Source: Thermoflexales bacterium (GTDB lineage Bacteria > Chloroflexota > Anaerolineae > Fen-1058). From it: a DNA stretch of 34,254 nucleotides. The notes beneath the pieces were generated by a model. It made no database searches, was not told the DNA's origin, and saw nothing but the letters and a program-made list of their open reading frames with translations. The translations under genes and the position numbers were made by a program. The stretch is taken from assembly GCA_041738395.1 (NCBI GenBank), contig JBGSPW010000064.1, forward strand, positions 64,001-98,254, in the 5' to 3' direction. Positions 1,705 through 25,528 of the stretch are shown in pieces; the first letter of the stretch is position 1, and each line of letters opens with the position of its first letter.

Positions 1705-1748
1705 CTCTCCCAAGAAGCGCTGCGTCAGGCGTCGAGGTAAAATGAAGC

Positions 1749-2439: not shown

Positions 2440-2478
2440 ACGGTCCTCGCCCATCAACGGTGGAGCGCAGTTTGTCTA

Positions 2479-2736
2479 ATGGCCAAATTCAAACTCGACT
2501 TGCACGACATCTACAATCGCGGCGGTGAGATCGACGCCGAACTCAATCGCATCGTGCAAGAAGCGCTGGCCAAGAAGATTGAGCTGGTCGAGATTATTCC
2601 CGGCAAAGGCAGCGGGCAGCTCAAGAAGAAAGTCCTGCGCTTCTTGAATCAGGGGCACATCCGTCCACTGTATCATCGCGTCGAAAAAGATGACAAGAAC
2701 TTCGGGCGTATCTTCATCCACTTCAAATTCAAGTGA
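2479..2736 (+). CDS. Smr (small MutS-related) domain protein
   Basis: 85 aa. LDLHDIY...VEIIPGKGSGQLKKKVLRFL matches the Smr domain consensus (LDLHG...IIHGKG.G.LR..V..WL). Confidence 0.7.
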   Translation: MAKFKLDLHDIYNRGGEIDAELNRIVQEALAKKIELVEIIPGKGSGQLKKKVLRFLNQGHIRPLYHRVEKDDKNFGRIFIHFKFK

Positions 2737-2830
2737 TGAAAATCGGCACAAAACAGATCGAGCGGACGTGAGTGATCACGCCCGCTCGTTGTCTTTCAAC
2801 GCTCTTAAACCGCGTCCTCGCGGTTTGTTT

Positions 2831-4240
<1,410 letters not shown>

Positions 4241-4260
4241 GAGTTATCCTCCGGGATGAA

Positions 4261-4761
4261 TTACGGTTTGCCCACGCTGATCTCATCGTGGCCGATGGTC
4301 GCGTGGCAGCGCGTGCAATCTTCCAGTTCGGTCTGCCCGGCATGATTGATCTGCGCCACAAAATCGCTGTGGCAATACTGGCAGTTGTTCAGCGCCACCG
4401 TCTTGTTGAACGGCGTAATCTGGATCGGTTCGTGAAAGTTCTGCAGCGTGAACGCGGCGCTGTGATTGAAGCCGTTGAGCGCTTTGACGATATACTTATC
4501 CGGGAACGTGTGCGGAATGTGGCAGTCATTGCACGTGGCCACCGCGTGATGCGGACCGCGCGACCACGCATCGAACACATCGTTCATGATGTGGCAGTTG
4601 CGGCAGGCATTTGGATCGTCCGAGAGATACGATGTGCCTTCAGCGTAGGCAAAGGTAAACATGCCCAGACCGACTACGCCGCCGAACAACAGGGCCAGCA
4701 AGGTCCACACCTTCAATGGCACGGCCCGCTGCGGCCCGGCACTAGCCGGTGTCTGACTCAT
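4261..4761 (-). CDS. nrfH: Membrane-anchored tetraheme cytochrome c NrfH (NapC/NirT family), quinol-oxidising partner of NrfA
   Basis: 166 aa. N-terminal TM helix plus four CxxCH motifs (CRNCH, CNDCH, CQYCH, CTRCH). Located immediately upstream of nrfA on the same strand with a 20-nt gap. Confidence 0.9.
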   Translation of the reverse strand: MSQTPASAGPQRAVPLKVWTLLALLFGGVVGLGMFTFAYAEGTSYLSDDPNACRNCHIMNDVFDAWSRGPHHAVATCNDCHIPHTFPDKYIVKALNGFNHSAAFTLQNFHEPIQITPFNKTVALNNCQYCHSDFVAQINHAGQTELEDCTRCHATIGHDEISVGKP

Positions 4762-4770
4762 GAATCCTCC

Positions 4771-5619
4771 TTAGAACGCGACGATGATGATGGCCGCAAA
4801 CAACACCGCGTGAACGATCTCGATCACGCCCAACTTCGGCAAGCTCAGCGATTGCTTATCCTGCCAGCGTGTCGCGCCGATCAACACCTTCAACGTCATA
4901 GGCACGAACGCCAGCATCACCAGCGCCGGCACGGTTCCCGCCGTCAGCGCCACCAGCACAATCAAGATCGTCAGCACGATGCTTTGATACGACAGGCAGG
5001 CTTTGGCTTTCACCAGGCGCTCGCTCACCCGATCGGGCGCAGGCAGGCGCGGCTGCTCACGCACCTTTAATTTGATGTAGAACACGGTGCCGCCAAAGTA
5101 CAGCGCATTGACGATCCACAAGGCCAGCGCCGTCCCATCGAGCTGGCCGCTGGCCGTGTAATAAGCCAATGGTGCACCCAGCGCCAACCCGAAGATACCC
5201 GCCAGCTCGCCGGTGGCCGACATCTCTTTGCGTCGATCGACCAGCCACCAGTGATAGACGAGCAAGGCCGCGCCGATCGCGCCAAACCCGATCAGCGCGT
5301 ACAGCCGATCGAGAACCACCAACCAACCGCCAGAGATCGCCGCGATCGATCCGTAGACGATCGCCCAGCGGATCAGCCACGCCCGATCGGCCTGGGGCCA
5401 CTTCCGCGTTTTGATCACCGTGTCGATGGGAAAGCGCAGCATAAAGAGCCCCAACGCGGCAAGGATCAACCACACCGATCGCCACTGCCACATTCCCGCC
5501 ACGGCCAAACCGATGATCAACGGCACCACGAACATGGCCCAGGAGCCATGCTCTTTGGGCAGCGGGATACTTCGTGCCGATCGAGAGGATTGGTTGTCGC
5601 GCATCTGCAACTCACTCAA
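4771..5619 (-). CDS. YwiC-like integral membrane protein (about 8 TM helices)
   Basis: 282 aa. The N-terminal KEHGSWAMFVVPLIIG segment resembles the YwiC-like family N-terminus. Multiple hydrophobic helices. The start (TTG at 5619 or ATG at 5604) overlaps or abuts the stop of the upstream Zn-ribbon ORF, and the gene sits 9 nt upstream of nrfH. Confidence 0.55.
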   Translation of the reverse strand: MSELQMRDNQSSRSARSIPLPKEHGSWAMFVVPLIIGLAVAGMWQWRSVWLILAALGLFMLRFPIDTVIKTRKWPQADRAWLIRWAIVYGSIAAISGGWLVVLDRLYALIGFGAIGAALLVYHWWLVDRRKEMSATGELAGIFGLALGAPLAYYTASGQLDGTALALWIVNALYFGGTVFYIKLKVREQPRLPAPDRVSERLVKAKACLSYQSIVLTILIVLVALTAGTVPALVMLAFVPMTLKVLIGATRWQDKQSLSLPKLGVIEIVHAVLFAAIIIVAF

Positions 5620-5837
5620 CTGAATTTGATCGGGCCGTGGGAGTGTTTGATCTCACAGGTGGTGCGATCGCACTGGCCCACGCAGTCCAGCGGCAACGCG
5701 TGTTGAAACACCTGTCCGCAGGCATGACAACGCGCCGAAGTATCGTAACACCATACTTCGACTTCCGGCTCACCGCACTGGGGGCACGTCACGTAATCTG
5801 GAAAAGGATGCGGCGCATCATGACCTAACACAGGCAC
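5616..5837 (-). CDS. Small Cys-rich zinc-ribbon protein (73 aa)
   Basis: CPQCG...CHACG plus a second CVGQCDRTTC cluster. Its TGA stop overlaps the TTG start of the downstream YwiC-like gene (TTGA overlap), arguing for a real, co-translated gene. Confidence 0.5.
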   Translation of the reverse strand: MPVLGHDAPHPFPDYVTCPQCGEPEVEVWCYDTSARCHACGQVFQHALPLDCVGQCDRTTCEIKHSHGPIKFS

Positions 5838-5881
5838 GCTCCCGACATTAACCCAAGTTTAATCGATCTGCTATCGTTCAC

Positions 5882-5899
5882 GTATGATTTGGATCATAC
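5882..5899. promoter_or_regulatory. Palindrome GTATGAT-ttgg-ATCATAC; CRP/FNR-family-like site upstream of the nrf operon
   Basis: Perfect 7-bp inverted arms with a 4-nt spacer. The core ATGAT-N4-ATCAT is 4/5 per half-site to the FNR/DNR consensus TTGAT-N4-ATCAA. Centred about 55 nt upstream of the Zn-ribbon gene start (5837, minus strand). Confidence 0.4.
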
Positions 5900-5937
5900 A
5901 GCACACAGCAAAGCAGGCGGCCATCAGGCCGCCTGCT
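5895..5937 (-). terminator. Hairpin (11-bp stem agcaggcggcc / ggccgcctgct, loop atca) after the DUF4342 gene; possible terminator or attenuator
   Basis: On the minus strand it is followed by tttgctgtgtgctg (moderately U-rich). Sits between DUF4342 and the Zn-ribbon-ywiC-nrfHA unit. Confidence 0.35.
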
Positions 5938-5971
5938 GACAGAAAACTCAGGGTCACAGGGAGACGCGCTG

Positions 5972-6277
5972 CTATTCGGTGCGCTCAATCACGATGGTCA
6001 TCTTAGCCACCAGGGCCGCGGCAGCGCCGATGGCCGCCCACACCGGCAGCAGAACCACACCGACCACGCCAATGGTGATCGGTATTTCCAGTAACGTCTT
6101 ACCAGATTCATCTTTCAACACAATGCGGCGGATGTTGCCTTCATGCAGCAATTTCTTGACGACATCCAACACTTGCCCGCCCGTGACACTGAACTCTTCA
6201 GTGTGCGGCTTGTGATCTTGCGGCGGAGTGTCGGTCTGCGGTGCTTCGCTTTGAGGTGGGGTTTGTTCGTCGGTCAT
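5972..6277 (-). CDS. Small protein resembling the DUF4342 family
   Basis: 101 aa. The Pro/Thr/Gln-rich N-terminus is followed by VLDVVKKLLHEGNIRRIVLKDESGKTLLEIPITIGVVGVVLLPVWAAIGAAAALVAKMTIVIER, which matches my recollection of the DUF4342 core. A hairpin at 5912-5937 follows it. Confidence 0.5.
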   Translation of the reverse strand: MTDEQTPPQSEAPQTDTPPQDHKPHTEEFSVTGGQVLDVVKKLLHEGNIRRIVLKDESGKTLLEIPITIGVVGVVLLPVWAAIGAAAALVAKMTIVIERTE

Positions 6278-6398
6278 GATCTGCTCCTTTCAGGTGGAAT
6301 GAATATAGTATAACGTGAAAGAAAGCGCAGGGCAACTGCCCCAACGTATGATAGAATGGGAATCACTTGAACGCGGCCAGCGTCCTAGCTTCAGCCAC

Positions 6399-6458
6399 AG
6401 AAACCGGGTTTCTGCGTGTAGTCTGGCATTACGCCAGAAATTGAGAAACCCGGTTTCT
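6399..6458. repeat. 60-nt twin-palindrome element, copy 1: AGAAACCGGGTTTCT - 30 nt - AGAAACCCGGTTTCT
   Basis: The two 15-mers are exact reverse complements of each other, and each is itself a near-palindrome (GAAAC-N3-GTTTC). The spacer contains an inner hairpin tctggc-attac-gccaga. Lies in the divergent intergenic region between the DUF4342 gene and the 801-aa gene. Confidence 0.6.
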
Positions 6459-6598
6459 ATGAGTTCAGCACCTTATCTTCAACGCAGCTCCCCAACTAGA
6501 GCCGCACTCAAGTGCTTGAACTGGCTGACCGGCACGCCGTATCATAGCATGACAGTTCGTGATCCTGGTGATTATTCACATCGTTTGTTTTGCTCTCA

Positions 6599-6638
6599 GT
6601 CCGCGTCCACGCGGACGCCCGCGAAGACGCGGGCTGGG
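6599..6638. repeat. GC-rich REP-like palindromic element family B, copy 1 (gtccgcgtccacgcggac + cccgcgaagacgcggg + ctggg)
   Basis: Two adjacent perfect hairpins, 48 nt upstream of the 801-aa gene start. Confidence 0.45.
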
Positions 6639-6685
6639 AACACTTGTAATTAAATCGCAGGCGATCCATTCGGGAGTGCGTCTGG

Positions 6686-9091
6686 ATGAAAATTCGACTC
6701 GGTGCGATTCTGCTTATGCTGGCCCTGCTGCTCACCTCCACGGTGGCCGCGGCGCAAACGCCCGTCACGTTAGTGGTCGAGGCCGGCCTGGACGGTCACT
6801 ATCAAGTCGGGCAGTGGCTGCCGGTGCGCGTCCTGATCGAAAACAACGGGCCTGGCCTCGACGGTCGGGTGGAGATCACTTTGCCCCGTGCCGATGAAGG
6901 GCAAGTCGTCAATGCTTATCCCGTCAGCCTACCCACCCAGTCGCGCAAAGAAATCACGCTCTATCTCTATCCCGAAACGTACATCGCCAGCCTCGACGTC
7001 ACCTTGCTCGATACCAGCGGGCAGCTGATCACGAAGCGCAGTGTGCCGCTCAAGTCGGTGAGTGATAACGATCGGCTGTTTGGCATCATCGCCGATCGGC
7101 CTTCGGCCTACAACGTCTTGAGCGAACTCGATCCGCCCAACGGCGTAGCGAACGTGGCGCAGCTCACGCTGCACGACCTGCCCGATCGATCCGTGGCCCT
7201 CGACAGCCTGGACACGCTCATCATCTCCAATGTGGACACCGGTGATCTGGCCGACGTGCAGCGCACGGCCCTATCGGCCTGGATCGCCAACGGCGGACGC
7301 TTGATCGTTACCGGCGGATCGGGCTGGCAGAAAACCAGCGCCGGACTGCGCGATCTACTGCCCCTGTCGCCTGCCAGCGCGATCCTGCTAGACGATCTAA
7401 GCGCGCTGAAAACTTACGCCGGCAGTACCGCCAGTCCGGGCAGTGCCATTATTGCCACTGGCGCCTCGACCCCGGACGCGCAAGTCATCCTCAAACAAGC
7501 CGAGACACCCTTGCTGATCCGGCGGCAACATGGTGTAGGTGAAGTCGTGTTTGTCAGCTTCGATCCGGTGGACTTGCAGCAAGTCGTCGTTGCCAGTTCT
7601 GCTCCGGGGGATTCACAGTCCTGGAATGGTTTCCTGGAAATCTATCGACAGCTCACGCAATCCCTACCCGATAAACCTAGCTGGGGCTATGGCGTGCAAG
7701 ATTGGTACACGGCCACGAGCGCCGCCTCAAATATTCCCAATTTGAACTTGCCGCCAGTCTCGTTGATTTGCGGTTTCCTGGGGTTGTACATGGTCGCCAT
7801 CGGGCCGGTCAACTACCTCATCGTGCGCAAACTGAAACGCCGTGAGCTGGCCTGGATCAGTGTGCCGCTGTTGACGATTGGTTTTACGGTGGCGGCTTTT
7901 CTGGCGGGCAATCTACTGCGCGGCAATCAACCGGTGCTCAATCGCTTGGCCCTGGTACAAGTCTGGCCTTCGGCCGATCAAGCTCGCTTGACGGGCATCG
8001 TCGGCTTGTATGCGCCGCAGCGCGCCATGTATGAGGTGAAAGCCGATCAGGGTTTACTCCTTCATCCAGCGTCTGATCCCAACCCCTACCGATCGACCGG
8101 TGACACTTCCGATTGGACCCTGAGCAGCGACGCCGCTACGTTGCGCGCCCGCGTCGAGATGGACGTCTCTGAAGTAAAAACGATGAGCGCCGAAGGCGAA
8201 GTGCCTGCACCGCAGTTTACACCTGCGCTACAGCTGGTGGTGGATAGTGCCGGAGCCAGAGTGAGCGGCTCGGTCACTAATCACAGCGACCTGGTTCTGC
8301 AAGATACCGTGCTGCTGGGGCCGGGCCTGGCCCACCAGGTGGGCACGGTCGAGCCAGGGGAAAGTGTGCCGGTTGATTTCAAACTGGAACGAGCCGCCCG
8401 CTCCAGCCAGACGACCGAGAACGTCCAGTATTACTACAATAGCGGTGATACGACCCTGGACGACATCGTCGGACCATACAACTTTAATAGCAGTGACACA
8501 GCCCGCAACCGCCGTTACGAAATGCTAAGCTCGTTGCTATCTGGCAACAACACGCCCATTCGCCGAGGTCGCGGCAGCGGCCTGTATTTAGCGGGCTGGA
8601 GCGATCGATCACCATTGAAAGTCGAAGTCGAAGGCACGCCGTTTGGTGCTTTTGATACCGCCCTGTACATCGTCGATTTGAATCCGACGCTCCAGATCAT
8701 GTCCGGCACACTGACGTTGCCACCGGGCGCCTTCACGTGGCAGGCCGACAATACCAACGGTCCCGGCATTGAACCGTATAACAGCGAGGTCTTTCCGGGC
8801 AGCTACAACCTTCAGTTCAACCTGGCGCGGCCGATTAGCTACACGACGATCAAGGACTTAACCTTGCACCTGGATACAGGCAACCGTCATTCCAGCGGCC
8901 TCACCTTCGCCGTGTGGAACTATCGGGCCAACAACTGGACGCCCTTGCCGAACGCCCAGGATGGAGATAATGCCATTCCGAATCCGCAAGAGCACGTCGG
9001 CCCCGGCGGTGAAATCCGCTTGAAGATCGATGTATCATCCGGCGGCCCGGTGCAACTCGATCGCGCCGACTTCACCCTGACGGTTCAATAA
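6686..9091 (+). CDS. Large secreted/membrane protein (801 aa); candidate accessory component of the downstream ABC transporter (GldG/DUF4350-like, tentative)
   Basis: Cleavable-type signal peptide MKIRLGAILLMLALLLTSTVAAAQTP. Two internal TM helices near aa 355-410. Large extracytoplasmic N- and C-terminal regions. The GGRLIVTGGSG segment is reminiscent of class-I glutamine-amidotransferase-like folds. Followed by the ABC ATPase after a 15-nt gap. Confidence 0.7.
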   Translation: MKIRLGAILLMLALLLTSTVAAAQTPVTLVVEAGLDGHYQVGQWLPVRVLIENNGPGLDGRVEITLPRADEGQVVNAYPVSLPTQSRKEITLYLYPETYIASLDVTLLDTSGQLITKRSVPLKSVSDNDRLFGIIADRPSAYNVLSELDPPNGVANVAQLTLHDLPDRSVALDSLDTLIISNVDTGDLADVQRTALSAWIANGGRLIVTGGSGWQKTSAGLRDLLPLSPASAILLDDLSALKTYAGSTASPGSAIIATGASTPDAQVILKQAETPLLIRRQHGVGEVVFVSFDPVDLQQVVVASSAPGDSQSWNGFLEIYRQLTQSLPDKPSWGYGVQDWYTATSAASNIPNLNLPPVSLICGFLGLYMVAIGPVNYLIVRKLKRRELAWISVPLLTIGFTVAAFLAGNLLRGNQPVLNRLALVQVWPSADQARLTGIVGLYAPQRAMYEVKADQGLLLHPASDPNPYRSTGDTSDWTLSSDAATLRARVEMDVSEVKTMSAEGEVPAPQFTPALQLVVDSAGARVSGSVTNHSDLVLQDTVLLGPGLAHQVGTVEPGESVPVDFKLERAARSSQTTENVQYYYNSGDTTLDDIVGPYNFNSSDTARNRRYEMLSSLLSGNNTPIRRGRGSGLYLAGWSDRSPLKVEVEGTPFGAFDTALYIVDLNPTLQIMSGTLTLPPGAFTWQADNTNGPGIEPYNSEVFPGSYNLQFNLARPISYTTIKDLTLHLDTGNRHSSGLTFAVWNYRANNWTPLPNAQDGDNAIPNPQEHVGPGGEIRLKIDVSSGGPVQLDRADFTLTVQ

Positions 9092-11120: not shown

Positions 11121-11207
11121 GAGCGGAGCATAGCGGAGTCGAAGGACGCGGATGTCTTGTATGAGCCGCATTCTTCGACTTCACTTCGTTCCGCTCGGAA
11201 CGCTTCA
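11121..11207 (+). repeat. Structured intergenic repeat family A, copy 1 (hairpin-forming, about 90 nt)
   Basis: gagcggagcatagcggagtcgaaggacgcgg ... ccgcattcttcgacttc ... ttccgctcggaacgcttc. The inner arms agtcgaagga/attcttcgact and the outer arms gagcggag/ttccgctc are complementary. Ends 3 nt before the start codon of the 558-aa gene. Confidence 0.55.
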
Positions 11208-11209
11208 AC

Positions 11210-12886
11210 TTGAATACGATGCCTACTAACGCACTGACTGACCTTAATCACCAGCTCGATGGCTGGCTGCGGCGCTATCGCCTACAGCGTGCGGTGCGCT
11301 GGTCGCTGCGTGGCGCGGCACTTGCCTTAGGGGTGGCGCTGGTCATCACACTGATTGCCGTGCTGCGCGGCCTGTTGCTGCAAGGCGAGTTCATCACGCT
11401 GGCGATCGGCTTGATGGTGATCGGGACGATCAGCGCCGCAGCCGCCGGGTATCTCTGGCGGCCCGATCGGCTGGTGGCGGCCCGTTGGTTCGATCGACAC
11501 TTTGGGCTGCGTGAGCGGGTTAGCACTGCCCTAGAACTCGCTCACGCCCTGTCTGCGGAGCAGGGGCGCGCTGGGCGAGCCGATCGATCTTCCGGCGACC
11601 TCGCGCAACGCCAACTGCAAGACGCCGCCGCGATGGCGCAGCGCGTGAACGCGCGCCAACAACTGCCGTTGAAGATCAAGCGCATCGATGCCGTGTTGAC
11701 CGTCGGGTTGCTGGTGGCTGTCATGTTAGTGGCGTGGCGTGGTGAGTCGTTCTTTCAGCTGGCCGCGCAGACGCGCGCCGTGCAGCAGACCATCGCCGCC
11801 GAGGCCGCCAAGGTCGAGGCACTGCGTCAGCAGATCGCCACCGATCCCAACTTGACCGAAGCCCAACGGCAGGAAATGTTGCAGGCGCTGCAAGAAACAC
11901 AACAACAATTGAAAGACGCGCAGTCGCTGGAGCAGGCCACGGCGGTGTTGACGCGCGGCGAGAAAAAGTTCGAATCGTTGACGAATGCGCAGGCCGAAGC
12001 TCAAACCGAAGGGCTGCGCCAGGCCGGTCAGCGATTGGCGCAAGATGAAGGTAGCCCGCTGCAAGGCTTTGGGCAAAATCTGGCCGAAGGTGATTTTCTG
12101 GCCGCCGCCGAAAATCTGCGCAGCCTCGATCTGAGTCAGATGTCGGCTTCCGAAGCGGCGGCATTGGCCGATCAATTGGAACAGGCTGCGGAGGCCCTGC
12201 AATCTAGCAATCCCGCATTGGCCCAGCAGCTGCGTGCTGCCGCAGCTGCGGCGCGCAACGGTGATGCGCAAAAAGCGCAGCAGGCTTTGGATCAGGCCGC
12301 GCAAGCGATGACACAGGCCGCGCAACAAACCGCGCGATCGAACGTGGCGCGCCAGGCAGCGGCACAGTTGGGCCAAGGTCGTCAGCGCATGATCGCCGCC
12401 GGTCGCAGCGCTCAGAGTCAAGCAGCGCAAGGAGACCAAGCGGGACAGGGCGACCCAACGCAGCCGGGTTCAAATCAAAGTGGATCATCAACGCAAGGCA
12501 ATCCAAATGGCGGAGCGGGATCAGGATCGGGCAAAGGCACGGGCAACAGCGGCGACGCGCAAGGCCCCGAGGCCGGTGGCAAACCGATCGATCAAAACAA
12601 CGGCCCCGGCGATGGCGGCGAAACGCCCTACGAACCGATCTATGCACCGCAGCTTTTGGGCGGTGGCGAAGGTGATACGGTGACACTGCCCGGCAGCGGC
12701 GATAATGGCGGAGATGTAACCGGACAGAGTGGCGTCAATCCCGGCAGCGACACGCCGAGTCAAGTGCCGTACTCGCAAGTGTTTGCTCAATATGCCAACG
12801 CGTATCGACAAGCGATCGACAACGGGCAAGTGCCGCCGCAGCTGAAAGATTTGATCCGGCAGTATTTCAGTTCGCTGGAACCGTGA
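11210..12886 (+). CDS. Membrane-anchored coiled-coil protein with Ala/Gln-rich and Gly/Ser/Asn-rich low-complexity regions
   Basis: 558 aa. Two N-terminal TM helices and a third near aa 160. Long AQ-rich predicted coiled coil. Gly-rich disordered tract. Conserved-looking C-terminal 40 aa ending QLKDLIRQYFSSLEP. No family assigned. Confidence 0.7.
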   Translation: MNTMPTNALTDLNHQLDGWLRRYRLQRAVRWSLRGAALALGVALVITLIAVLRGLLLQGEFITLAIGLMVIGTISAAAAGYLWRPDRLVAARWFDRHFGLRERVSTALELAHALSAEQGRAGRADRSSGDLAQRQLQDAAAMAQRVNARQQLPLKIKRIDAVLTVGLLVAVMLVAWRGESFFQLAAQTRAVQQTIAAEAAKVEALRQQIATDPNLTEAQRQEMLQALQETQQQLKDAQSLEQATAVLTRGEKKFESLTNAQAEAQTEGLRQAGQRLAQDEGSPLQGFGQNLAEGDFLAAAENLRSLDLSQMSASEAAALADQLEQAAEALQSSNPALAQQLRAAAAAARNGDAQKAQQALDQAAQAMTQAAQQTARSNVARQAAAQLGQGRQRMIAAGRSAQSQAAQGDQAGQGDPTQPGSNQSGSSTQGNPNGGAGSGSGKGTGNSGDAQGPEAGGKPIDQNNGPGDGGETPYEPIYAPQLLGGGEGDTVTLPGSGDNGGDVTGQSGVNPGSDTPSQVPYSQVFAQYANAYRQAIDNGQVPPQLKDLIRQYFSSLEP

Positions 12887-12909: not shown

Positions 12910-13067
12910 CCCGCCCAGCGCGCCGCCCAGCCTGCGGCTGGGGCACGGCGTGAGCGGAGCGCAGCGTAGTCGAAGGATGCGGCTTGCGCTAACAAGCGTT
13001 GTTCGTGTAACACGCATTCTTCGACTACAGCCCGAAAAAGCACGGACTTCCGCTCAGAATGCTTCGT
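12910..13067 (+). repeat. Structured intergenic repeat family A, copy 2 (full length, with a 5' cccagcc-N3-ggctggg hairpin)
   Basis: gtgagcggagcgcagcgtagtcgaaggatgcgg ... cgcattcttcgactac ... cttccgctcagaatgcttcg. A 16-bp inner stem with 1 mismatch. Ends about 38 nt before the moxR ATG. Confidence 0.55.
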
Positions 13068-13104
13068 CTATTTTTTACGCAATACGCATTACGAAAGGCC
13101 AGTC

Positions 13105-14082
13105 ATGACCCAACCTCTTACCGTCGATCAATTCCGCGAACTTGCCACGAACATGGAAACCGAGATTGGCCGCGTCATCGTGGGACAAAACGAGGTAGTG
13201 CGCGGCGTGTTGATCGGTATTCTGGCGGGTGGACACGTGCTGCTGGAAGGCGTGCCCGGTCTGGGCAAGACGATGTTGATCCGTACGCTGGCGCAAGTGT
13301 TGGATTTGAAATTCTCGCGCATTCAGTTCACGCCCGATCTGATGCCCGCCGACATTGTAGGCACCGAGATTTTGATCGATCAAGACGGGCAGCGCGCCTT
13401 TCGTTTTCAAGCCGGGCCGGTGTTTGCCAATCTCGTGCTGGCCGATGAGATCAATCGCGCCACGCCCAAGACGCAATCGGCATTGCTGGAAGCGATGCAG
13501 GAACATTCCGTGACGGTGGCGCAGCAGACGTATCAACTGGAAGAACCGTTCTTTGTCATGGCGACGCAGAATCCCTTGGAGATGGAAGGCACGTATCCCC
13601 TGCCCGAAGCGCAGCTCGATCGGTTCTTGTTCAAGATCAATGTCCCCTTCCCTTCGGCGACTGAACTGGTGGAGATTCTGGCGCGCACGACGGGCAAAGA
13701 TACACCTGCCGCGCAGACTGCCGTCAGTGGCGCCGACATCGTGCGGATGCGCGATCTGGCGCGGCAGACACCCATCGCTTCACATGTTAGCGAATACGTT
13801 GCACGCCTGATCGTCGCTACGCATCCCGATAACCCCGAGGCGACACCGCTGGTGAAGCAATACGTCCACTATGGATCATCGCCGCGTGGTGGGCAGGCCA
13901 TCATCCTCGGCGCGAAGATCGTCGCACTGCTGGCCGAGCGTTACAACGTCGCGTTTGAAGACATCGCCGTCGTCGCGCCGTCGGCCTTGCGTCATCGCTT
14001 GATCTTGAACTTCGAAGGCTTGGCGGAAGGCGCGAGCGCGGATCGGATTGTGGCGGAGTTATTGGAAAAGGTAGCAAAGTAG
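13105..14082 (+). CDS. MoxR-family AAA+ ATPase
   Basis: 325 aa. Walker A GVPGLGKT, Walker B LADEINRA, sensor motifs. Length and motifs are typical of MoxR/RavA-like ATPases. RBS AAAGG 6 nt upstream. Confidence 0.9.
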   Translation: MTQPLTVDQFRELATNMETEIGRVIVGQNEVVRGVLIGILAGGHVLLEGVPGLGKTMLIRTLAQVLDLKFSRIQFTPDLMPADIVGTEILIDQDGQRAFRFQAGPVFANLVLADEINRATPKTQSALLEAMQEHSVTVAQQTYQLEEPFFVMATQNPLEMEGTYPLPEAQLDRFLFKINVPFPSATELVEILARTTGKDTPAAQTAVSGADIVRMRDLARQTPIASHVSEYVARLIVATHPDNPEATPLVKQYVHYGSSPRGGQAIILGAKIVALLAERYNVAFEDIAVVAPSALRHRLILNFEGLAEGASADRIVAELLEKVAK

Positions 14083-14115
14083 AAGCGGCAGTGCGTCTAG
14101 CCACCAGAAGCTGAT

Positions 14116-15039
14116 ATGACCCATCACGGCGTCCAGCGAATTGCTGGTTCGTTATTGATAGCAACGGTTCTTGCAGGGTGCATTTCGCCTGTGATACCGA
14201 CCTCGACCTCTGTCCCTGTCACTGTTGAGCCAACATGGCAACCAACACCAGCGATGCTTCCCACCGAGGCCATTCCTATTAAGATTGTAGATGGTTCTCA
14301 AGGTTCAGTAATGTCACCCGTTCATGGACAGCTGCTTGTGCGGGCTTGCGAGAAAGAAGCATATGACAAATGTCCCAGCGCCTACGAATGCGATCTCGGA
14401 TATGTCGATCTAGCCAACGCACATTTTGTCCGCGTGCAACATATCAGTGAAGAAGACCCATTTTGCGAGAGCCGGAAGACAGATTTAATCTGGGCACCAG
14501 ATGGAACACAATTTGTTTATCGTAGAGGATGGATTGGCTCAATTGACTTTATCGTGTATGGCGCTGATGGTACTCAAAAACAACCTCTGGGGAGCTTTTA
14601 TCTAAGCGGTGCGTTCTGGACACCAGACGGGCGTTATCTCATTGTCAAAACGGGTGTAGGACCAAATTCACAACCCGCTGTTGAATACACCGTGTATGAT
14701 GCCCTTTCATGGAAGAAGGTTTGTGTAGTTGCCTCTGGTAATGGGATGATATTTGTTGTCGGAGGACAATGTATAGTGCCACTGAAAGACGGTCGAGCAG
14801 TGTTTCTTAGCGGAACCAAGGGTGTTGAGATGGCTATATGCAATGATCAGGCAAATTGTCCCGGCAGCAATAAGCTTCGACCGATTGGATCATTCTCTGA
14901 CCAAACCTTTGACTCGACCCGTTATCAAGCCCAAATCGAAAATTACTGGTTACGGGTATTTGACAGTGAAAGCGGTGTAGCACGAACATATGTAATACCT
15001 GGGTATCGCGTGACCAGCATCGCCTGGTCGCCAAAGTGA
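14116..15039 (+). CDS. Lipoprotein with PD40/TolB-like beta-propeller repeats; compositionally foreign (low GC)
   Basis: 307 aa. Lipobox LAGC. Repeated W.PDG motifs (WAPDGTQFVY, WTPDGRYLIV, IAWSPK). The nucleotide composition is visibly AT-richer (roughly 48% GC) than the flanking genes (about 62%). Confidence 0.7.
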   Translation: MTHHGVQRIAGSLLIATVLAGCISPVIPTSTSVPVTVEPTWQPTPAMLPTEAIPIKIVDGSQGSVMSPVHGQLLVRACEKEAYDKCPSAYECDLGYVDLANAHFVRVQHISEEDPFCESRKTDLIWAPDGTQFVYRRGWIGSIDFIVYGADGTQKQPLGSFYLSGAFWTPDGRYLIVKTGVGPNSQPAVEYTVYDALSWKKVCVVASGNGMIFVVGGQCIVPLKDGRAVFLSGTKGVEMAICNDQANCPGSNKLRPIGSFSDQTFDSTRYQAQIENYWLRVFDSESGVARTYVIPGYRVTSIAWSPK

Positions 15040-15090
15040 GCAAACTGAGCACGACAATACGCTTCACGTATCACGTTTTACGTACCAATC

Positions 15091-15984
15091 ATGCTCTTCG
15101 ACGAAACCTCCCTCCGCAAACTTCAGCAACTGACCCTCGTCACGTCGCGCGTGCGAGCGGGCGCGCTGCGCGGTGAGCGGCGTTCACTCAAACGCGGCGC
15201 GGGATTGGAGTTTGCCGACTTCCGCGATTACGTCCCCGGCGACGATCTGCGCCGTGTAGATTGGAACGTCTACGCGCGGCTCGATCGACCGTACATCAAA
15301 TTACGCGAAGAAGAAGAAGACCTGGCCGTTCACATTCTGATCGATGCGTCGCAATCGATGGATTGGGGTGAAGGCTCGCAGCACAAATTTGCATTCGCGT
15401 TGCACCTGGCGGCGGGAGTCGGCTCGATCGCGTTGGGCACGGGCGATCGCATTTCAGTTGTCATGCTGAGCAAGCTCAAGGTGGACGACAGTCCACCGAT
15501 CACGGAAGTCTCACTCCGTGGTCAACAGTACCTGCTGCACTTGCTCAAATTTCTTGAAGCGCAGCAAGCGGCAGGCGCCACTAATCTGGATGCCGCCATG
15601 CACCGTTACCTCATCAAGCCGCGCCGTCCCGGACTGGTAACTTTGATTTCGGATTTGCTCTCGCCCAACGGCTATCAATCGGCCCTGAAGATGTTGCAAC
15701 AACGCGGACACGAAGTGGCAATCGTGCACGTCCTGTCGCCGGACGAAGTCGATCCACCGTTGGCGGGCGATCTCAAACTGATCGATGTTGAAACGGGCCT
15801 TGCACAAGAAGTCAGTTTGGACAGCGGACTGCGCACTGCGTATCGCGAGCGGGTGGAGGCATGGCGCAACGAAGCACAGACGTTTTGCCGCGCGCGCGGT
15901 TTACGCTATCTCGCCGTCGAAACCGATCGGGCGTGGGATGAAGTGGTGTTGTACGACATGCGCAAAGCGGGCATGGTGAGATAA
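15091..15984 (+). CDS. DUF58 domain protein (partner of MoxR ATPases; BatII-like)
   Basis: 297 aa. LEFADFRDYVPGDDLRRVDWNVYAR is the hallmark DUF58 motif. Follows moxR as in Bat/MoxR operons. Confidence 0.85.
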   Translation: MLFDETSLRKLQQLTLVTSRVRAGALRGERRSLKRGAGLEFADFRDYVPGDDLRRVDWNVYARLDRPYIKLREEEEDLAVHILIDASQSMDWGEGSQHKFAFALHLAAGVGSIALGTGDRISVVMLSKLKVDDSPPITEVSLRGQQYLLHLLKFLEAQQAAGATNLDAAMHRYLIKPRRPGLVTLISDLLSPNGYQSALKMLQQRGHEVAIVHVLSPDEVDPPLAGDLKLIDVETGLAQEVSLDSGLRTAYRERVEAWRNEAQTFCRARGLRYLAVETDRAWDEVVLYDMRKAGMVR

Positions 15985-16012: not shown

Positions 16013-16130
16013 CTGCTCAGCCGTCATGCCCGAGTGCTTCTGTCGGGCATCCAGATTCACTGCTGACATGCCCTCTGGATTCCCGCTAGAAGCATGCGGG
16101 AATGACAGCGCCGCGCGACGGCTGAGTAGA
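16013..16130. repeat. MITE-like element: 13-bp terminal inverted repeats (ctgctcagccgtc / gacggctgagtag) enclosing two internal hairpins
   Basis: The TIR match is 12/13. Internal hairpins atgcccga-N8-tcgggcat and attcccgc-N8-gcgggaat, whose loops are reverse complements of each other. Located between DUF58 and the BatA-like gene. Confidence 0.45.
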
Positions 16131-16232: not shown

Positions 16233-18107
16233 ATGAACTTACTCGCACCTGCCGCGCTAGCCTTGAGTGCGCTGGCGATCCCCATCGTCATCTTCTACAT
16301 GTTGAAGCTGCGCCGCCGCGAAGTGACGGTCTCGTCCACGCTGCTGTGGCAGATGGTGCTGCGCGATCGACAGGCCAACGCGCCGTGGCAGCGCCTGCGC
16401 CGCAACCTCTTGCTGCTGCTGCAACTGTTGATCCTTGCCGCGTTGATCCTCGCCCTCGCCCGACCGGCGATCAGCGTCCCCACGCTCGCCGCGGGGTCAA
16501 GCGTGATTCTATTAGATGCGTCGGCGTCGATGAATGCCACCGATGTCGATCCCTCGCGCTTTGAAGCGGCCCGCCGCGCGGCTCAAGCATTGATCGATAC
16601 GCTGCCTTCTGCCGCACCCGTGACCATCATCGTGGCGGGTCAACAGCCGCAAGTGATCGCTTCGGCGGAGACCGATCGATCGACGTTGAAGCGCGCGCTC
16701 GACGAAGCGCGGCCCACCAACGGCGCGACCGACTGGTCAGCCGCATTTGCGTTAGCCGCCGGCGCGCTCGGTCGCCAGATCGATCAACCGACGACGGTGA
16801 TCATCTCCGATGGCGGCCTGCCGTCGAATCTGCCACCTTTGCCCGGCGAAGTACGCTACGTCCCGATCGGCCAATCAAGCGACAACGTGAGTGTCTCGGC
16901 CCTGTCATTGCGACCCACCAAGAACGGCGCAGAGTTATTCGCCGGCGTCGCCAATCACAGCGACACGGATCGATCGGTCATCCTCTCGCTCTACTCCGAC
17001 GGCGCGCTGCTGCAAGCACAGCCGATCGATCTGACAGCAGGCGAGACGCACAATGTGGTGCTGCCCGATCTACCGCGTGACGCGGCCGTCTATCAGGCGG
17101 CCCTCTCGCGGCCCGATCAATCCACGCAGCCCCTTGATGCACTCTCACTGGATGATGCTGCTTTCGCCGTCAATAATCCGGCGGGGGCGCGGCGTGTCTT
17201 GGTGATCTCACCGGGCAACGTCTTTCTGGAACAATTGCTGGCCGCCATGCCCGACCTGCAAGCATTTCGCGCCCTGCCCCAAAAAGACGGAACGGTGCAA
17301 ATGCCCACGGACGAATTCGATCTGTACATCTTCGATGGATTGGTGCCCGACGAACTGCCGTTCAAGCCGACGTTGTTCATCAATCCGCCGCAGAATTCGG
17401 TACTGCGCATCGATGGCGTCTTCAGCAACACGACCAACGCCCGCGTGATCGATTCGCCCGTGACGCGCGATGTGAATTGGAGCAACGTGCACGTGCGCAA
17501 GGCCAAACACATTACTCCACCGCAGTGGGCCAAGACGTTGATCGATTCAGAGGGCGGACCGTTGGTCGTCGCGGGCGACACCGGTGTGCGGCGCGTGGGC
17601 GCGATCACGTTCGATCTGCACGATTCTGATCTGCCGCTGCAAGTGACCTTTCCGATCTTGCTGGTCAACCTGATCAACTATCTCGCTCCGGGCCGATCGT
17701 TCAACGCACCTGATGGCGTGCGTCCCGGCGAGAGTTTGATCATCCGACCGGACGCAGCCGTGAGCACAGTCGCCATCGCGTCGCCGTCCAATCAGGTATA
17801 CACGGTGCGGCCCGCCGAAGGCACGGTCATCTTCAAAGACACCGGCGAGTTAGGCGCGTATGCCATCACGTCGATCAGCGGCGATCAGCAAACGGTCGAT
17901 TACTTCGCCGTGAACCTGTTCGAGCCGGCCGAGTCCAACCTCCGCCCGGTGGAAGCGATTCGGATCGGGCAAAGCCAGATTTCAGCGACACCGGCCACTG
18001 AGCAAGGCTGGCAGGAATGGTGGCCGTGGCTGGCGGCGCTGGCGCTGTTGATCTTGTTGATCGAGTGGTGGGTGTATCACGGGCGGCAGCGGGTAAAGAG
18101 GAATTGA
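16233..18107 (+). CDS. BatA-like protein: N-terminal double-TM anchor plus von Willebrand factor A domain, C-terminal TM
   Basis: 624 aa. The N-terminus LAPAALALSALAIPIVIFYMLKLRRREVTVSSTLLWQ matches the BatA/aerotolerance N-terminal double-TM domain. VWA MIDAS motif DASASM. C-terminal hydrophobic helix WWPWLAALALLILLIEWW. Confidence 0.85.
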   Translation: MNLLAPAALALSALAIPIVIFYMLKLRRREVTVSSTLLWQMVLRDRQANAPWQRLRRNLLLLLQLLILAALILALARPAISVPTLAAGSSVILLDASASMNATDVDPSRFEAARRAAQALIDTLPSAAPVTIIVAGQQPQVIASAETDRSTLKRALDEARPTNGATDWSAAFALAAGALGRQIDQPTTVIISDGGLPSNLPPLPGEVRYVPIGQSSDNVSVSALSLRPTKNGAELFAGVANHSDTDRSVILSLYSDGALLQAQPIDLTAGETHNVVLPDLPRDAAVYQAALSRPDQSTQPLDALSLDDAAFAVNNPAGARRVLVISPGNVFLEQLLAAMPDLQAFRALPQKDGTVQMPTDEFDLYIFDGLVPDELPFKPTLFINPPQNSVLRIDGVFSNTTNARVIDSPVTRDVNWSNVHVRKAKHITPPQWAKTLIDSEGGPLVVAGDTGVRRVGAITFDLHDSDLPLQVTFPILLVNLINYLAPGRSFNAPDGVRPGESLIIRPDAAVSTVAIASPSNQVYTVRPAEGTVIFKDTGELGAYAITSISGDQQTVDYFAVNLFEPAESNLRPVEAIRIGQSQISATPATEQGWQEWWPWLAALALLILLIEWWVYHGRQRVKRN

Positions 18108-18174
18108 TAATTGCTGAATGCTGATTGTTGATCGACCAACCGTCACGTATCACGCATTACGTTTTACGTTCATT

Positions 18175-21042
18175 ATGCATTTCACGACACCGCTTCTTCT
18201 ACTCTTACTCATCCTCCTGCCGATCATCATCCTGATCGGCAAGCCGGTGCGCGGATCGGCGCGGCGGCGCGAAATCCTCGCGTTGGGGCTGCGGATGATC
18301 ATCGTGGGGTGTGTGATCCTCGCGCTGGCTGGATTAGAGATCGCGCGCCCTTCCGATCAACTGGCGGTCGTGTTTCTGATCGACGCCTCCGATTCGATGT
18401 CGGATGAAGCGAAAGGGCTGGCGACGGATTACGTGCGGCAGGCTCTGCGCCACATGGGGCCGGACGATCAAGCGGCCATTGTCGTGTTCGGCGGTGAGGC
18501 GCTGGTGGAACGCGCCATGTCGTCTTCACGCGAACTCACTTCGCTCACCTCGGCGCCCAACACGGGACAGACCAATCTGGCCGATGCGATTCGCCTGGGA
18601 TTGGCGCTGTATCCGGCGGGCGCGGCGCGGCGCATGATCATCCTATCGGACGGCGCACAAACGATCGGGGATGCCGAGGAAGCCGCACGCTTTGCGGCCG
18701 ACAGCGGCGTGGAGATCAGCACGCTGCCCTTCGTGATGCAGCTCGGCTCGGAAGCCCTCATCACTTCCGTAGAAACGCCGGCGCGTTTGCGGCAAGGCGA
18801 ACGCTTCGATCTGCGTGTCAGCATCGACTCAACGCAAGCGATGCCCGCTCAGCTGCGCGTGCTGGTCAATGGACAAGTGGTGCACGAAGCCAGCTATCGC
18901 CTCAACCAGGGTCATCAAACGATCAGCATTCCATTGACGGCCACTGAACCGGGCTTCACGCGCTACATCGTGCAGATCGATCCACCGCAGGATCACGCGT
19001 ATCAAAACAATGAGCTGGCCGCCATCGCGCAAGTGTTGGGCGAGCCGAAGGTCTTGGTGGTGTCGCTGCCCGAGGGCACGCCCCTGCCCAACGGCGAGGC
19101 GCGCCCCGCTGAAGCCGATGCCCTGCTGCGCGCGCTGCAAGCCGCCAACTTCAACGTGGAAACGGCGCGGCCGGCGCAGCTGCCTTCGGATGTGGCGACG
19201 CTGGCTGATTACGCCTCGGTGGTGCTGGTCGATGTGCCTGCGCGCGAATTGTCGACGCGCCAGATGGAAGCGCTGCGCAGCTACGTGCGTGATCTAGGCG
19301 GCGGCCTCGTCACGATCGGTGGACCCACCAGCTATGGCGTGGGCGGCTACTACAAAACCCCGCTCGAAGATGCGCTGCCCGTCGAGATGCAGATCAAAGA
19401 CGAACAGCGCCGCCCGTCATTGGGTCTGGTGTTCATCATCGATCATTCCGGCAGCATGGGCGAGTTGAGCGGCGGCGCGACGAAATTGGAGCTGGCCAAG
19501 GAAGCGGCGGCTCGATCGGTGCAACTGTTGATGCCCAACGATCGCGTCGGCGTGATCGCGTTCGACGACGTCGCCAACTGGGTCGTGCCCATGACCGAGT
19601 TGTCCGATCCGTCTGGCGTGATCAACCAGATCGGCACGATTCGCATCGGCGGCGGCACTGATATTTATGGCGGCGTGCTGGCGATGTCGAAAGTGCTGCC
19701 CGACGATCCGGCCAAAGTAAAGCACGTGATTCTGCTCACCGATGGCGGTGCTGATCCCCACGGCATTCCTGAACTGGTGCGAAAACTGCACGACGAAAAC
19801 AACATCACCCTGACGACCGTGGGTGTGGGCCGCGATGCCGCGCCGTTCTTGCCCAGTCTCGCGGAAATCGGTGGTGGGCGTTATCACTTCGCCAAGGATC
19901 CCGGATCGATTCCCAGCATCTTCACCGAAGAAACGACACTCGCGACGCGTTCATACATCGAAGAAGGCGAGTTCTTTCCTAAGCAGGCCGCGCCCTCGCC
20001 GCTGTTGAACGGCATCACACAAGCGCCGCCGTTGTATGGCTATGTCGCAACATCGGCCAAAGACGCCGCGCAGACCATCCTCGTGTCGGCTAAAGATGAT
20101 CCGGTGTTGGCGGCGTGGCAGTATGGCCTGGGCAAAGCGGTGGCCTTCACGTCGGATGCCACGGGCCGTTGGGCGCGCGACTGGGTCGATTGGGATCAGT
20201 TCCCGTTGTTCTGGGGACAAGTGGTGCGTTACACCATCGGCGATCCGAACGCGTCCGCGTTGAACGTGAGTGTGGATCAGCAGGGCGATTCAGCCAAGGT
20301 GATCGTCGATGCGCGCGGCGCGAACGGCGACTATCTCAATGGTTATACCCTTAACGGCAACATCGTCAATCCCGATGGATCAGCTCAACCGATCGAGTTA
20401 CAGCAGACCGCCCCGGGTCGTTACGAAGGATCGTTCCAGCCGCGCGATCAGGGTGCGTACGTCATCGGCGTGGCAGGACAATCGCCCGATGGTGAAGTGT
20501 TGAACGAGAAAGCGGGTTGGGTGTTGTCGTACTCGCCCGAATATCGCAACCTCGAATCGAATCCTGATGCACTGTATCGCTTGACGCTGGCGGCGAACGG
20601 GCAGGTTGCGGCCAGCGATCCCGCCGAGGCCTTCGCGCATACGCCCGCAGGGCGCGCCGCGCCGCTCGCCACACGGCCGGCGTGGCCGTGGTTACTACTG
20701 ATCGCGGCGCTGCTGCTCCCCTGCGATGTCGGCGTGCGGCGCTTGGCCTTCGAGTGGCGTGACGTGCAAAAAGCGTGGCGGGCGATCGGGACGAAGTGGC
20801 AAGTGAAGCGCGCGGCGCAAGCAGCCCTGCCCGCCCGATCGGAACGCATGGCGACATTGTTCGATGCCAAGCAGCGCACCCGCGTCGAACGCGTGGAGCG
20901 CGCGGAACCGATCGAGCCGCCGCCAGCCGATCGGGAAGAGACAAAGCCGCCTGCGCCTCAACTCGATCGATCCACCACAAGCAAAGACCCCACCACAACC
21001 ACCTCGAGCTTGCTAGAAAAAAAGCGCGCCCGGCGAAAGTAG
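18175..21042 (+). CDS. Double VWA-domain membrane protein (BatB-like), with a charged K/E/R-rich C-terminal tail
   Basis: About 955 aa from ATG 18175 (MHFTTPLLLLLLILL). The ORF-track start at 18118 is less likely. Two VWA domains with MIDAS motifs DASDSM and DHSGSM. N-terminal and C-terminal TM helices. Terminal tail EKKRARRK. Confidence 0.8.
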   Translation: MHFTTPLLLLLLILLPIIILIGKPVRGSARRREILALGLRMIIVGCVILALAGLEIARPSDQLAVVFLIDASDSMSDEAKGLATDYVRQALRHMGPDDQAAIVVFGGEALVERAMSSSRELTSLTSAPNTGQTNLADAIRLGLALYPAGAARRMIILSDGAQTIGDAEEAARFAADSGVEISTLPFVMQLGSEALITSVETPARLRQGERFDLRVSIDSTQAMPAQLRVLVNGQVVHEASYRLNQGHQTISIPLTATEPGFTRYIVQIDPPQDHAYQNNELAAIAQVLGEPKVLVVSLPEGTPLPNGEARPAEADALLRALQAANFNVETARPAQLPSDVATLADYASVVLVDVPARELSTRQMEALRSYVRDLGGGLVTIGGPTSYGVGGYYKTPLEDALPVEMQIKDEQRRPSLGLVFIIDHSGSMGELSGGATKLELAKEAAARSVQLLMPNDRVGVIAFDDVANWVVPMTELSDPSGVINQIGTIRIGGGTDIYGGVLAMSKVLPDDPAKVKHVILLTDGGADPHGIPELVRKLHDENNITLTTVGVGRDAAPFLPSLAEIGGGRYHFAKDPGSIPSIFTEETTLATRSYIEEGEFFPKQAAPSPLLNGITQAPPLYGYVATSAKDAAQTILVSAKDDPVLAAWQYGLGKAVAFTSDATGRWARDWVDWDQFPLFWGQVVRYTIGDPNASALNVSVDQQGDSAKVIVDARGANGDYLNGYTLNGNIVNPDGSAQPIELQQTAPGRYEGSFQPRDQGAYVIGVAGQSPDGEVLNEKAGWVLSYSPEYRNLESNPDALYRLTLAANGQVAASDPAEAFAHTPAGRAAPLATRPAWPWLLLIAALLLPCDVGVRRLAFEWRDVQKAWRAIGTKWQVKRAAQAALPARSERMATLFDAKQRTRVERVERAEPIEPPPADREETKPPAPQLDRSTTSKDPTTTTSSLLEKKRARRK

Positions 21043-25455: not shown

Positions 25456-25528
25456 CTCATCGCATCCTTCGACTCCCGCTTCGCCTGTGCTCACGCCGTG
25501 TCCCAGCCTTTGGCTGGGCGGCGCGCTA
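25456..25528 (-). repeat. Structured intergenic repeat family A, copy 3 (5' half only, inverted on the plus strand)
   Basis: The reverse complement reads agcgcgccgcccagccaaaggctgggacacggcgtgagcacaggcgaagcgggagtcgaaggatgcg. This is nearly colinear with 12917-12990 of copy 2. Lies between tetR and the ABC ATPase start (25421), in the sense orientation of that gene. Confidence 0.5.

Follow-up and report, generated by a model that had tools for sequence, protein, structure and literature searches.

The integron integrase IntI can insert gene cassettes outside integrons at attG sites of sequence 5'-GWT-3', and a cassette that lands near a resident promoter is expressed (Loot et al., bioRxiv 10.1101/2022.09.11.507474). 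Such cassettes "could also be domesticated", the attC site being deleted by replication slippage (bioRxiv 10.1101/2022.09.11.507474). Integrons occur in Chloroflexi, and it has been discussed that attC clusters may arise from insertion at secondary sites (Cury et al. 2016, PMC4889954). A cassette that lies outside an integron is usually identified through its attC site, and once this is lost it is indistinguishable from an ordinary gene; attC-less domesticated cassettes have been predicted but are hard to document. Here we describe a candidate in a stretch of 34,254 nucleotides (nt) from a Thermoflexales bacterium (contig JBGSPW010000064.1 of assembly GCA_041738395.1, forward-strand positions 64,001-98,254), which we call the window. 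A gene of low G+C content (GC) for a predicted lipoprotein lies there between the moxR and DUF58 genes of a MoxR-DUF58-VWA operon. We read it as a foreign, cassette-derived gene that was inserted into the operon, has lost its attC site and is read from the operon transcript, and we assign this reading a probability of roughly 0.7. Comparison loci are designated by L numbers and homologous proteins by P numbers.

The insert and its flanks consist of the following features, both neighbours of the open reading frame (ORF) being those named in a preliminary description of this DNA and now identified by Pfam.

13105..14082, forward strand: moxR, a MoxR-type AAA+ ATPase of 325 amino acids (Pfam AAA_3, E = 7.6e-66, plus AAA_lid_2); native left flank.
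14083..14115, forward strand: spacer of 33 nt from the moxR stop to the lipoprotein start, from alignment with L002.
14116..15039, forward strand: low-GC lipoprotein gene, 307 amino acids, described by composition, family alignments and a structure model.
15040..15054, forward strand: 3' tail imported with the lipoprotein gene, from homology to the post-stop sequence of cassette-borne homologs.
15091..15984, forward strand: DUF58 gene, 297 amino acids (Pfam DUF58, E = 2.7e-40); native right flank.

The lipoprotein ORF has a GC of 0.483 and a GC at third codon positions (GC3) of 0.412, compared with 0.585 and 0.706 for moxR and 0.586 and 0.668 for DUF58. Relative to a baseline of 24 other plausible genes of the window (GC3 0.64-0.83; codon-adaptation index computed leave-one-out), it deviates by z = -5.5 in GC, -6.3 in GC3 and -5.0 in codon adaptation. 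It is also the lowest-GC stretch of 924 base pairs (bp) in the 34 kb, the minimum elsewhere being 0.535. The preliminary description had judged the ORF at 14116-15039 to be AT-rich with about 48% GC, close to the measured 48.3%, and had proposed a windowed test of GC and codon usage, which gives this departure of 5-6 standard deviations in GC, GC3 and codon usage. Its estimate of about 62% for the flanks was too high; they measure about 58.5%, which reduces the contrast from 14 points to about 10.

The adjacency of moxR and DUF58 that the preliminary description took to be normal is indeed the rule, the gap between them being shorter than 300 bp in 49 of the 57 loci in which DUF58 follows moxR. 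In the nearest informative relatives without the insert, L012 and L013, it measures 45 and 34 bp, so that the suggested comparison of orthologous loci finds the insert absent at these junctions. The lipoprotein gene is missing from the 57 comparable loci outside the window lineage; rather than being carried with the same composition by all relatives, it is shared by only one close relative, L002. The gene thus combines deviant composition and codon usage with absence from the orthologous site in relatives, the pattern by which horizontally acquired genes are recognised, and we are confident that its origin is foreign.

L002 is a 1.5-kb contig from a metagenome assembly that holds the 3' end of moxR, a low-GC gene and the 5' end of DUF58, in the order of the window. 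Its insert has a GC3 of 0.41, against 0.66 and 0.70 in the flanks. Window and L002 compare as follows, where dS is the synonymous divergence and dN/dS the ratio of non-synonymous to synonymous divergence.

Lipoprotein gene: 79% amino-acid identity, dS 0.44, dN/dS 0.28.
MoxR fragment: 88% amino-acid identity, dS 0.83, dN/dS 0.11.
DUF58 fragment: 92% amino-acid identity, dS 0.58, dN/dS 0.08.

Because the same low-GC gene sits at the same junction in both, it predates the split of the two lineages, which places the insertion in an ancestor of the window organism and the L002 organism. The synonymous divergence of the lipoprotein gene (0.44) is similar to that of the flanks (0.58-0.83). The protein evolves faster than its MoxR and DUF58 neighbours; its dN/dS of about 0.28 nevertheless indicates purifying selection, and thus a functional gene rather than a pseudogene.

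The family to which the lipoprotein belongs is rare, with 7 matches at E <= 0.001 among 5.8 billion proteins. As the homolog search proposed in the preliminary description brought out, these extremely scarce relatives lie in unrelated contexts, and only in the window and L002 is a family gene adjacent to MoxR/DUF58. In seven independent contigs (L003, L007, L008, L009, L010, L107 and L110; L004-L006 are contigs overlapping L003), the family gene is flanked by attC sites. These span 126-133 nt, start with ..CTAAC, end with GTTAG.. and have folding energies of -41 to -68 kcal/mol; elements of this kind also stand behind the neighbouring genes, and all genes have one orientation, with every attC site of the arrays on the gene strand. 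An attC site was taken to comprise an inverse core RYYYAAC and a core GTTRRRY, R''/R' pairing, an L''/L' stem, bulges and a variable centre. The alignment of 14 sites displays invariant R''/R' pairs (CTAAC/GTTAG), an unpaired spacer, a bulged L''/L' stem and a variable centre, with compensatory double changes in 10 of the 22 pairs of the consensus structure, so that the homolog loci have both the structure of attC sites and the single orientation of cassette arrays.

A covariance model built from the 14 sites finds its training sites again at 79-131 bits. Among untrained sites, it recovers truncated ones at contig ends with 25-71 bits and two in L110 with 115 and 88 bits. There are five attC sites in L003 (four complete, one cut by the contig edge), three each in L007 and L107, and two each in L008, L010 and L110. 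The cassette neighbours are typical of chromosomal integrons and include GajA and GajB (Gabija), the candidate defence gene PDC-S45 and the toxin BrnT. We conclude from the attC-flanked genes in seven contigs that the family members are integron gene cassettes, which makes the word "cassette", as the preliminary description used it for a horizontally acquired insert, close to literal.

Two of these loci deserve separate mention. In L003, from a microbial-mat metagenome, positions 190-7594 carry cassettes for Gabija GajA and GajB, the lipoprotein, PDC-S45 and a protein of 317 amino acids, each followed by an attC site. In L008, positions 916-1058 encode an N-terminal extension of the annotated 393-residue homolog P0004 that is a translated attC site; the true start of P0004 is probably a downstream methionine ahead of the signal peptide.

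In a neighbour-joining tree of 24 family members (268 columns, 100 bootstrap replicates), the window and L002 proteins form a sister group to P0003 (the L007 cassette) and P0011 (the L110 cassette), a grouping recovered in 78 of the 100 replicates. Cassette-borne members occur in every major clade. Since most relatives with visible context are promoterless single-gene attC cassettes, among them the two nearest relatives in the tree, the lipoprotein gene is likely to have come from the integron cassette pool, and the parsimonious direction of transfer would be from integron to chromosome.

Two further family members lack attC. The copy in L108 has a GC3 of 0.47, with neighbours at 0.77-0.81, and that in L109 a GC3 of 0.46, against 0.83, and lies 6 nt after a Peptidase_S58 gene. 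They belong to a different clade from the window and L002 proteins and hence represent an independent exit. The gene is a low-GC outlier in L008 as well as in these two loci. The L108 copy is bracketed by two near-perfect palindromes of about 36 nt, CAGACCTGACAGGTTTTnnAAACCTGTCAGGTCT, at about 750-790 and 1790-1830, which could be a different mobility or termination element.

The right boundary of the insert can be narrowed by comparison with the cassettes. The stop codon of the lipoprotein gene and the next 15 nt read TGA GCA AAC TGA GCA CGA, with a second in-frame stop two codons on, at 15046-15048. The pattern TGA-NNN-NNN-TGA-G is common to the window and L003, L007, L008, L009 and L010; L110 has CGA in place of the first stop, and its protein runs on to the second. 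The homology of these 15 post-stop nucleotides to the cassettes implies that imported DNA extends to about 15051-15054. The attC of the cassettes starts 28-45 nt after the stop, where the window has the native DUF58 leader instead. The second in-frame stop is also found in L002 and in most family members, and could be a back-up stop or the relic of a longer C-terminus. On the left, the spacer at 14083-14115 is poorly conserved and has an 11-nt deletion in L002. It contains GTCTAGCC at 14095-14102, 13 nt before the ATG, whereas cassettes have GTTAGCC 23-25 nt before theirs.

Two candidate traces at the boundaries were discarded. One was CAAAGT[AG], found at the ends of both moxR and the lipoprotein gene and considered as a target-site duplication or microhomology; it was dropped because the post-stop sequence is homologous to cassettes and the right boundary therefore lies further downstream. 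CTAACAAGCG, in a hairpin at 12966-13028, resembles the 5' end of the attC sites of L007 and L107 and was rejected because the covariance model does not match it. The hairpin belongs to a repetitive extragenic palindromic (REP)-like repeat consisting of GCATYCTTCGACT and its complement, which occurs at 11137-11180, 12966-13028 and 25462-25474 and in weaker form at 5751 and 16525 (7 matches versus 0.9 expected). Upstream of several genes, moxR among them, it folds into hairpins whose arms are about 30 nt long, and none of its copies matches the attC model.

Around the insert, sites resembling promoters or terminators are no more numerous than in shuffled sequence, and the lipoprotein gene is thus most simply read from the operon transcript. 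The likeliest sequence of events would begin with attC x attG recombination, by which the integrase of an integron placed a circular cassette at a non-canonical genomic site; the target for this need only contain 5'-GWT-3'. The insertion would have placed the promoterless gene downstream of the operon promoter, allowing expression by read-through, and a later deletion of the attC hairpin of about 130 nt would have made it non-excisable and restored a short spacer before the DUF58 leader. This specific route of attG insertion followed by attC loss is tentative, and we give it somewhat less than even odds.

A number of points weigh against a domesticated cassette. No attC was found when the covariance model was run on the whole window with filters off, nor in L001 or L002; the best score in the window is 18.5 bits, at 11419-11487, inside a coding region and without R boxes, and nothing is found at 14083-15090. 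By the attC criterion, the locus is neither an integron cassette nor a SALIN, which is a single attC site without an integrase. GTCTAGCC is the only candidate for a remnant of an attC core site, a possible but weak one. There is no direct trace of integrase action, and other insertion routes are equally compatible with the junctions. No integrase lies beside any of the homolog arrays, whose contigs of 1-8 kb are too short for one to be seen, none of them reaching the head of an array; strictly, these loci qualify as clusters of attC sites. The comparison of junctions offers no empty site from a close relative, the nearest insert-free loci having 68-74% MoxR identity. The tree rests on 268 columns with moderate bootstrap support. 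GC3 is still 0.41 in both the window and L002 lineages after a dS of about 0.4-0.8, which would mean either that the gene started at a lower GC3 or that something maintains its low GC. Finally, the function of the protein is suggested only by its signal sequence and its fold class, and the fold match is weak enough to leave the number of blades uncertain.

The gene may instead have been acquired horizontally without any integron, by illegitimate or homology-assisted recombination of transformed DNA or on another element since lost. The cassette arrays would then inform on the mobility of the family and not on the arrival of the window copy. We consider this unlikely, yet still a serious competitor, for neither the window nor L002 contains an attC, an integrase or a clear core-site remnant, family copies without attC also occur in high-GC contexts (L108, with its 36-nt palindromes, and L109, directly behind Peptidase_S58), and unrelated genes without integron signature occupy the same junction in other lineages. 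Such a route leaves unexplained that the nearest relatives are cassettes and that the inserted segment is itself cassette-like, one promoterless ORF that is flanked by short untranslated ends and oriented like the operon. Moreover, a demonstrated mechanism exists for the outcome of cassette insertion (bioRxiv 10.1101/2022.09.11.507474). The window has no integrase or transposase in its 34 kb, no other mobile-element gene, no target-site duplication and no flanking direct repeat better than chance.

Two explanations dispense with acquisition by the chromosome altogether, and both appear very improbable. According to one, this is a native gene whose low GC is kept by selection, for instance for slow translation of a secreted, disulfide-rich protein, or results from amino-acid composition. 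The family does stay at 47-50% GC in all ten loci examined, whatever the host, and no shift of GC3 towards the host value is visible despite the divergence accumulated since the split from L002. Amino-acid composition, however, cannot produce a GC3 of 0.41 where the other genes have 0.64-0.83, and a native gene would not be expected to be absent from the junctions of L012 and L013, at a site where most loci have only a short gap, to recur in seven cassette arrays on unrelated contigs, or to have 7 close matches in 5.8 billion proteins; we regard this explanation as largely refuted. The other reverses the transfer, with an ancestral chromosomal gene of Chloroflexota recruited into integron cassettes. 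Chromosomal genes must at some point be the source of cassettes, as is established knowledge and is discussed in PMC4889954. Against this stand the alien composition of the gene in the window, the spread of cassette members across the whole tree, in which window and L002 make up a single tip group beside cassettes, and the 3' tail with its second stop, which is common to many cassette members.

The encoded protein has the sequence features of a bacterial lipoprotein, namely a signal peptide and a lipobox of the form [LVI][ASTVI][GAS]C; lipidation itself is predicted. Residues 1-22 form the signal peptide MTHHGVQR-IAGSLLIATV-LAGC, and the lipobox LAGC reported in the preliminary description is found at residues 19-22, behind a charged n-region and a hydrophobic h-region, with the codon of Cys22 at 14179-14181. 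A lipobox is found in 14 family members. Residues 23 to about 52 form a linker rich in proline and threonine, and residues from about 53 to 307 (about 255) a cysteine-rich, all-beta domain resembling a PD40-type propeller. Conserved in the family alignment are two invariant WxPDG motifs, an IENYWLR motif, a C-terminal AWSP motif and cysteines. An AlphaFold model from 7 sequences has a mean predicted local distance difference test score (pLDDT) of 75.5 and a predicted template-modelling score (pTM) of 0.74; its secondary structure is all-beta, comprising about 20 strands, and the first 36 residues are disordered.

Fold searches return TolB as the best match, a weak one with a template-modelling (TM) score of about 0.3, in which about 170 of the roughly 400 residues of TolB align at a root-mean-square deviation of 6 A. 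Pfam PD40 (PF07676) scores below its gathering threshold (15.4 bits versus 20.9, E = 0.018, over a 12-residue stretch), and no Pfam or NCBIfam family exceeds its threshold for this protein; the homolog P0003 has a precomputed PF07676 match in its source database, marked as faint in the contig look-up. The earlier label "PD40/TolB-like" is thus only partly borne out: it agrees with the WxPDG motifs and a probable PD40 class, and fails both for a Pfam PD40 match above threshold and for identity with TolB. We rejected the latter because the N-terminus consists of a lipobox and a disordered Pro/Thr linker (pLDDT below 50) and no tol or pal genes lie nearby. The lipoprotein is probably of the PD40 propeller class, without a close solved relative. 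It had no match in PADLOC or PHROGs.

A profile of the family finds about 30 full-length cluster representatives, while thousands of multi-repeat proteins match over the WxPDG blades only. A metagenome scan with the family alignment, in which the generic WxPDG motif was used, found only unrelated PD40-repeat proteins and no family members, and a scan of viral contigs found no relative. An alignment-based search of indexed proteins, swamped by PD40 candidates, recovered only 8 proteins.

From its sequence and model, the protein would be exported by Sec and lipidated at Cys22, the linker of about 30 residues spacing the domain from the outer face of the cytoplasmic membrane. The displayed domain would be a disulfide-stabilised, propeller-like PD40-type module of about five blades for binding a ligand or a protein. 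We put the chance of such a binding role at the cell surface at about even. Nothing indicates a part for the lipoprotein in the chemistry of MoxR, DUF58 and VWA proteins.

The operon that received the gene continues downstream of DUF58 with two further genes.

16233..18107, forward strand: BatA-N/VWA membrane protein, 624 amino acids (Pfam BatA and VWA_2), the next operon gene.
18175..21042, forward strand: second VWA / GATase1-like gene of the operon (ORF called from 18118).

Its order of MoxR, DUF58, BatA-N/VWA and VWA, established by Pfam, is that of a canonical MoxR-DUF58-VWA (Bat-type) operon. The second VWA gene probably starts at ATG 18175 rather than at 18118, since translation from there gives a BatA-like N-terminus, MHFTTPLLLLL, and the ATG also follows one of the leaders described below. 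The closest MoxR matches in species-representative genomes come from metagenome-assembled genomes of Anaerolineales/Anaerolineae, with 75, 74, 68 and 65% identity, which assigns the window to an Anaerolineae-type member of the Chloroflexota that lacks a close relative among sequenced representatives. Upstream of moxR, Pfam identifies a DUF4350-like protein and an ABC transporter pair. The remaining genes of the window belong to core metabolism and encode NrfA and NrfH cytochromes, a cytochrome bc complex, RNase D and a beta-CASP nuclease. The 249-nt intergenic region between DUF58 and the first VWA gene contains a 13-nt inverted repeat, CTGCTCAGCCGTC / GACGGCTGAGTAG, with arms 91 nt apart (16013-16129); the sequence between the arms looks hairpin-forming by eye, and may be a repeated element or a regulatory structure.

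In other lineages, too, genes are found between moxR and DUF58. L014 (Anaerolineaceae) has a GH114-family glycosidase gene of native composition at 6987-7964, whose start and stop codons overlap those of its neighbours. In L011, the closest sequenced relative, positions 5553-6046 of the gap hold a gene for a 136-residue 23S-rRNA-IVP four-helix bundle, with purine-rich inverted repeats (GGAAGGAAGAAGG... / ...CCTTCTTCCTTCC) on either side; this arrangement is suggestive of a small mobile unit at this junction. Further extra genes encode a small membrane protein in Isosphaeraceae and a membrane protein of 463 amino acids in L086. We considered the junction as a hot spot for foreign genes and dropped the idea, because the extra genes in L014, L011, Isosphaeraceae and L086 are compositionally native and so do not point to recent transfer having occurred repeatedly. 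Additional genes are tolerated at the junction, but one of strongly alien composition is found there in the window lineage alone.

Three genes of the operon are preceded by leaders in which ACG triplets recur with a period of 7 nt.

13077..13093, forward strand: moxR leader with three ACG at a 7-nt period, ending 11 nt before ATG 13105.
15051..15082, forward strand: DUF58 leader with five ACG spaced 8, 7, 7 and 7 nt, ending 8 nt before ATG 15091.
18145..18168, forward strand: leader of the second VWA gene with four ACG, ending 6 nt before ATG 18175.

Within the window, the pattern (ACG-N4)x3 is confined to 13077-13093, 15059-15083 and 18145-18168, giving 6 overlapping matches where 0.51 are expected, a number reached in 0 of 100 shuffles. 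In 954 kb of other loci, it appears at the chance rate, 0.47 per 34 kb, and lies upstream of operon genes only in L002, where the DUF58 leader differs in its spacer bases but retains four ACG triplets at an unchanged distance of 8 nt from the ATG. The first VWA gene (16233) and the lipoprotein gene are not preceded by the pattern. The genes moxR, DUF58 and the second VWA gene have no obvious Shine-Dalgarno sequence, while several other genes of the window have GGAGG. The three leaders and the 5' spacer of the insert form no significant RNA structure (z -0.7 to +0.8), and Rfam has no match in the window.

These leaders bear on the proposed splitting of the junction. The preliminary description had noted a motif upstream of DUF58 that recurs before moxR and a VWA gene, which is borne out, the motif being periodic with 7 nt and the VWA gene being the second of the two. 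From this motif it had deduced that an original moxR-DUF58 junction was split. The DUF58 leader does appear native and the insert is without the motif, but the motif alone does not prove the split; the absence of the motif before the lipoprotein gene agrees with the view that the leader, as part of the original operon, stayed with DUF58 when the gene was inserted. The interpretation as a whole is supported, since all the checks put forward in the preliminary description favour it.

The function of the leaders is a matter for speculation. They might be bound by an oligomeric RNA-binding regulator that, like HutP, recognises triplets with 4-nt spacers between them, or alternatively be a translation-initiation element, independent of Shine-Dalgarno pairing, that coordinates the operon genes; under ACG control of this kind, the inserted lipoprotein gene would have escaped it. 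To this we join the equally speculative idea that the family represents a mobile surface function, such as phage exclusion or receptor masking, that repeatedly escapes from integrons into high-GC chromosomes (window and L002; L108 and L109) while holding about 48% GC. Taken jointly, these proposals are improbable as they stand.

Our analysis suggests that four features can still identify a domesticated cassette whose attC is gone: its composition, the gene order in relatives, the cassette setting in which its homologs occur, and a short conserved tail behind the stop codon. It extends the idea of the domesticated cassette to Chloroflexota and to insertion within a conserved operon. If the pattern is general, attC-based counts underestimate both what integrons contribute to chromosomal gene content and the range of phyla in which they do so. 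The practical value of the finding is modest, the lipoprotein having only a putative binding role.

Among described systems, the lipoprotein would share WxPDG-type blades and a predicted location in the cell envelope with the PD40 (WD40-like) propellers of PF07676 and TolB. In contrast to TolB, it does not combine an N-terminal alpha/beta domain with a six-bladed propeller and a periplasmic Tol-Pal context. Nor is it a component of Bat/MoxR-DUF58-VWA operons, since its relatives outside the window lineage are never linked to MoxR. The homolog loci are much like the attC-cluster arrays described by Cury et al. (2016, PMC4889954), with ORFs in the same orientation, homogeneous attC sites and typical companions, whereas the window locus itself is no array. 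A SALIN is defined by its attC, so the window locus, which has none, can be at most a post-domestication end state. It differs from the cassettes of Loot et al. in that its host belongs to Chloroflexota and is not a proteobacterium, in that the insertion lies inside an operon, between normally adjacent genes, and in that the involvement of an integrase would have to be deduced. With the attC x attG insertions and SALIN of the same work it shares a single promoterless ORF of a cassette family, at a non-integron site, in sense orientation and downstream of a resident promoter. A promoterless cassette-family gene lying in sense within an operon, its attC gone, fits the predicted end state of domestication.

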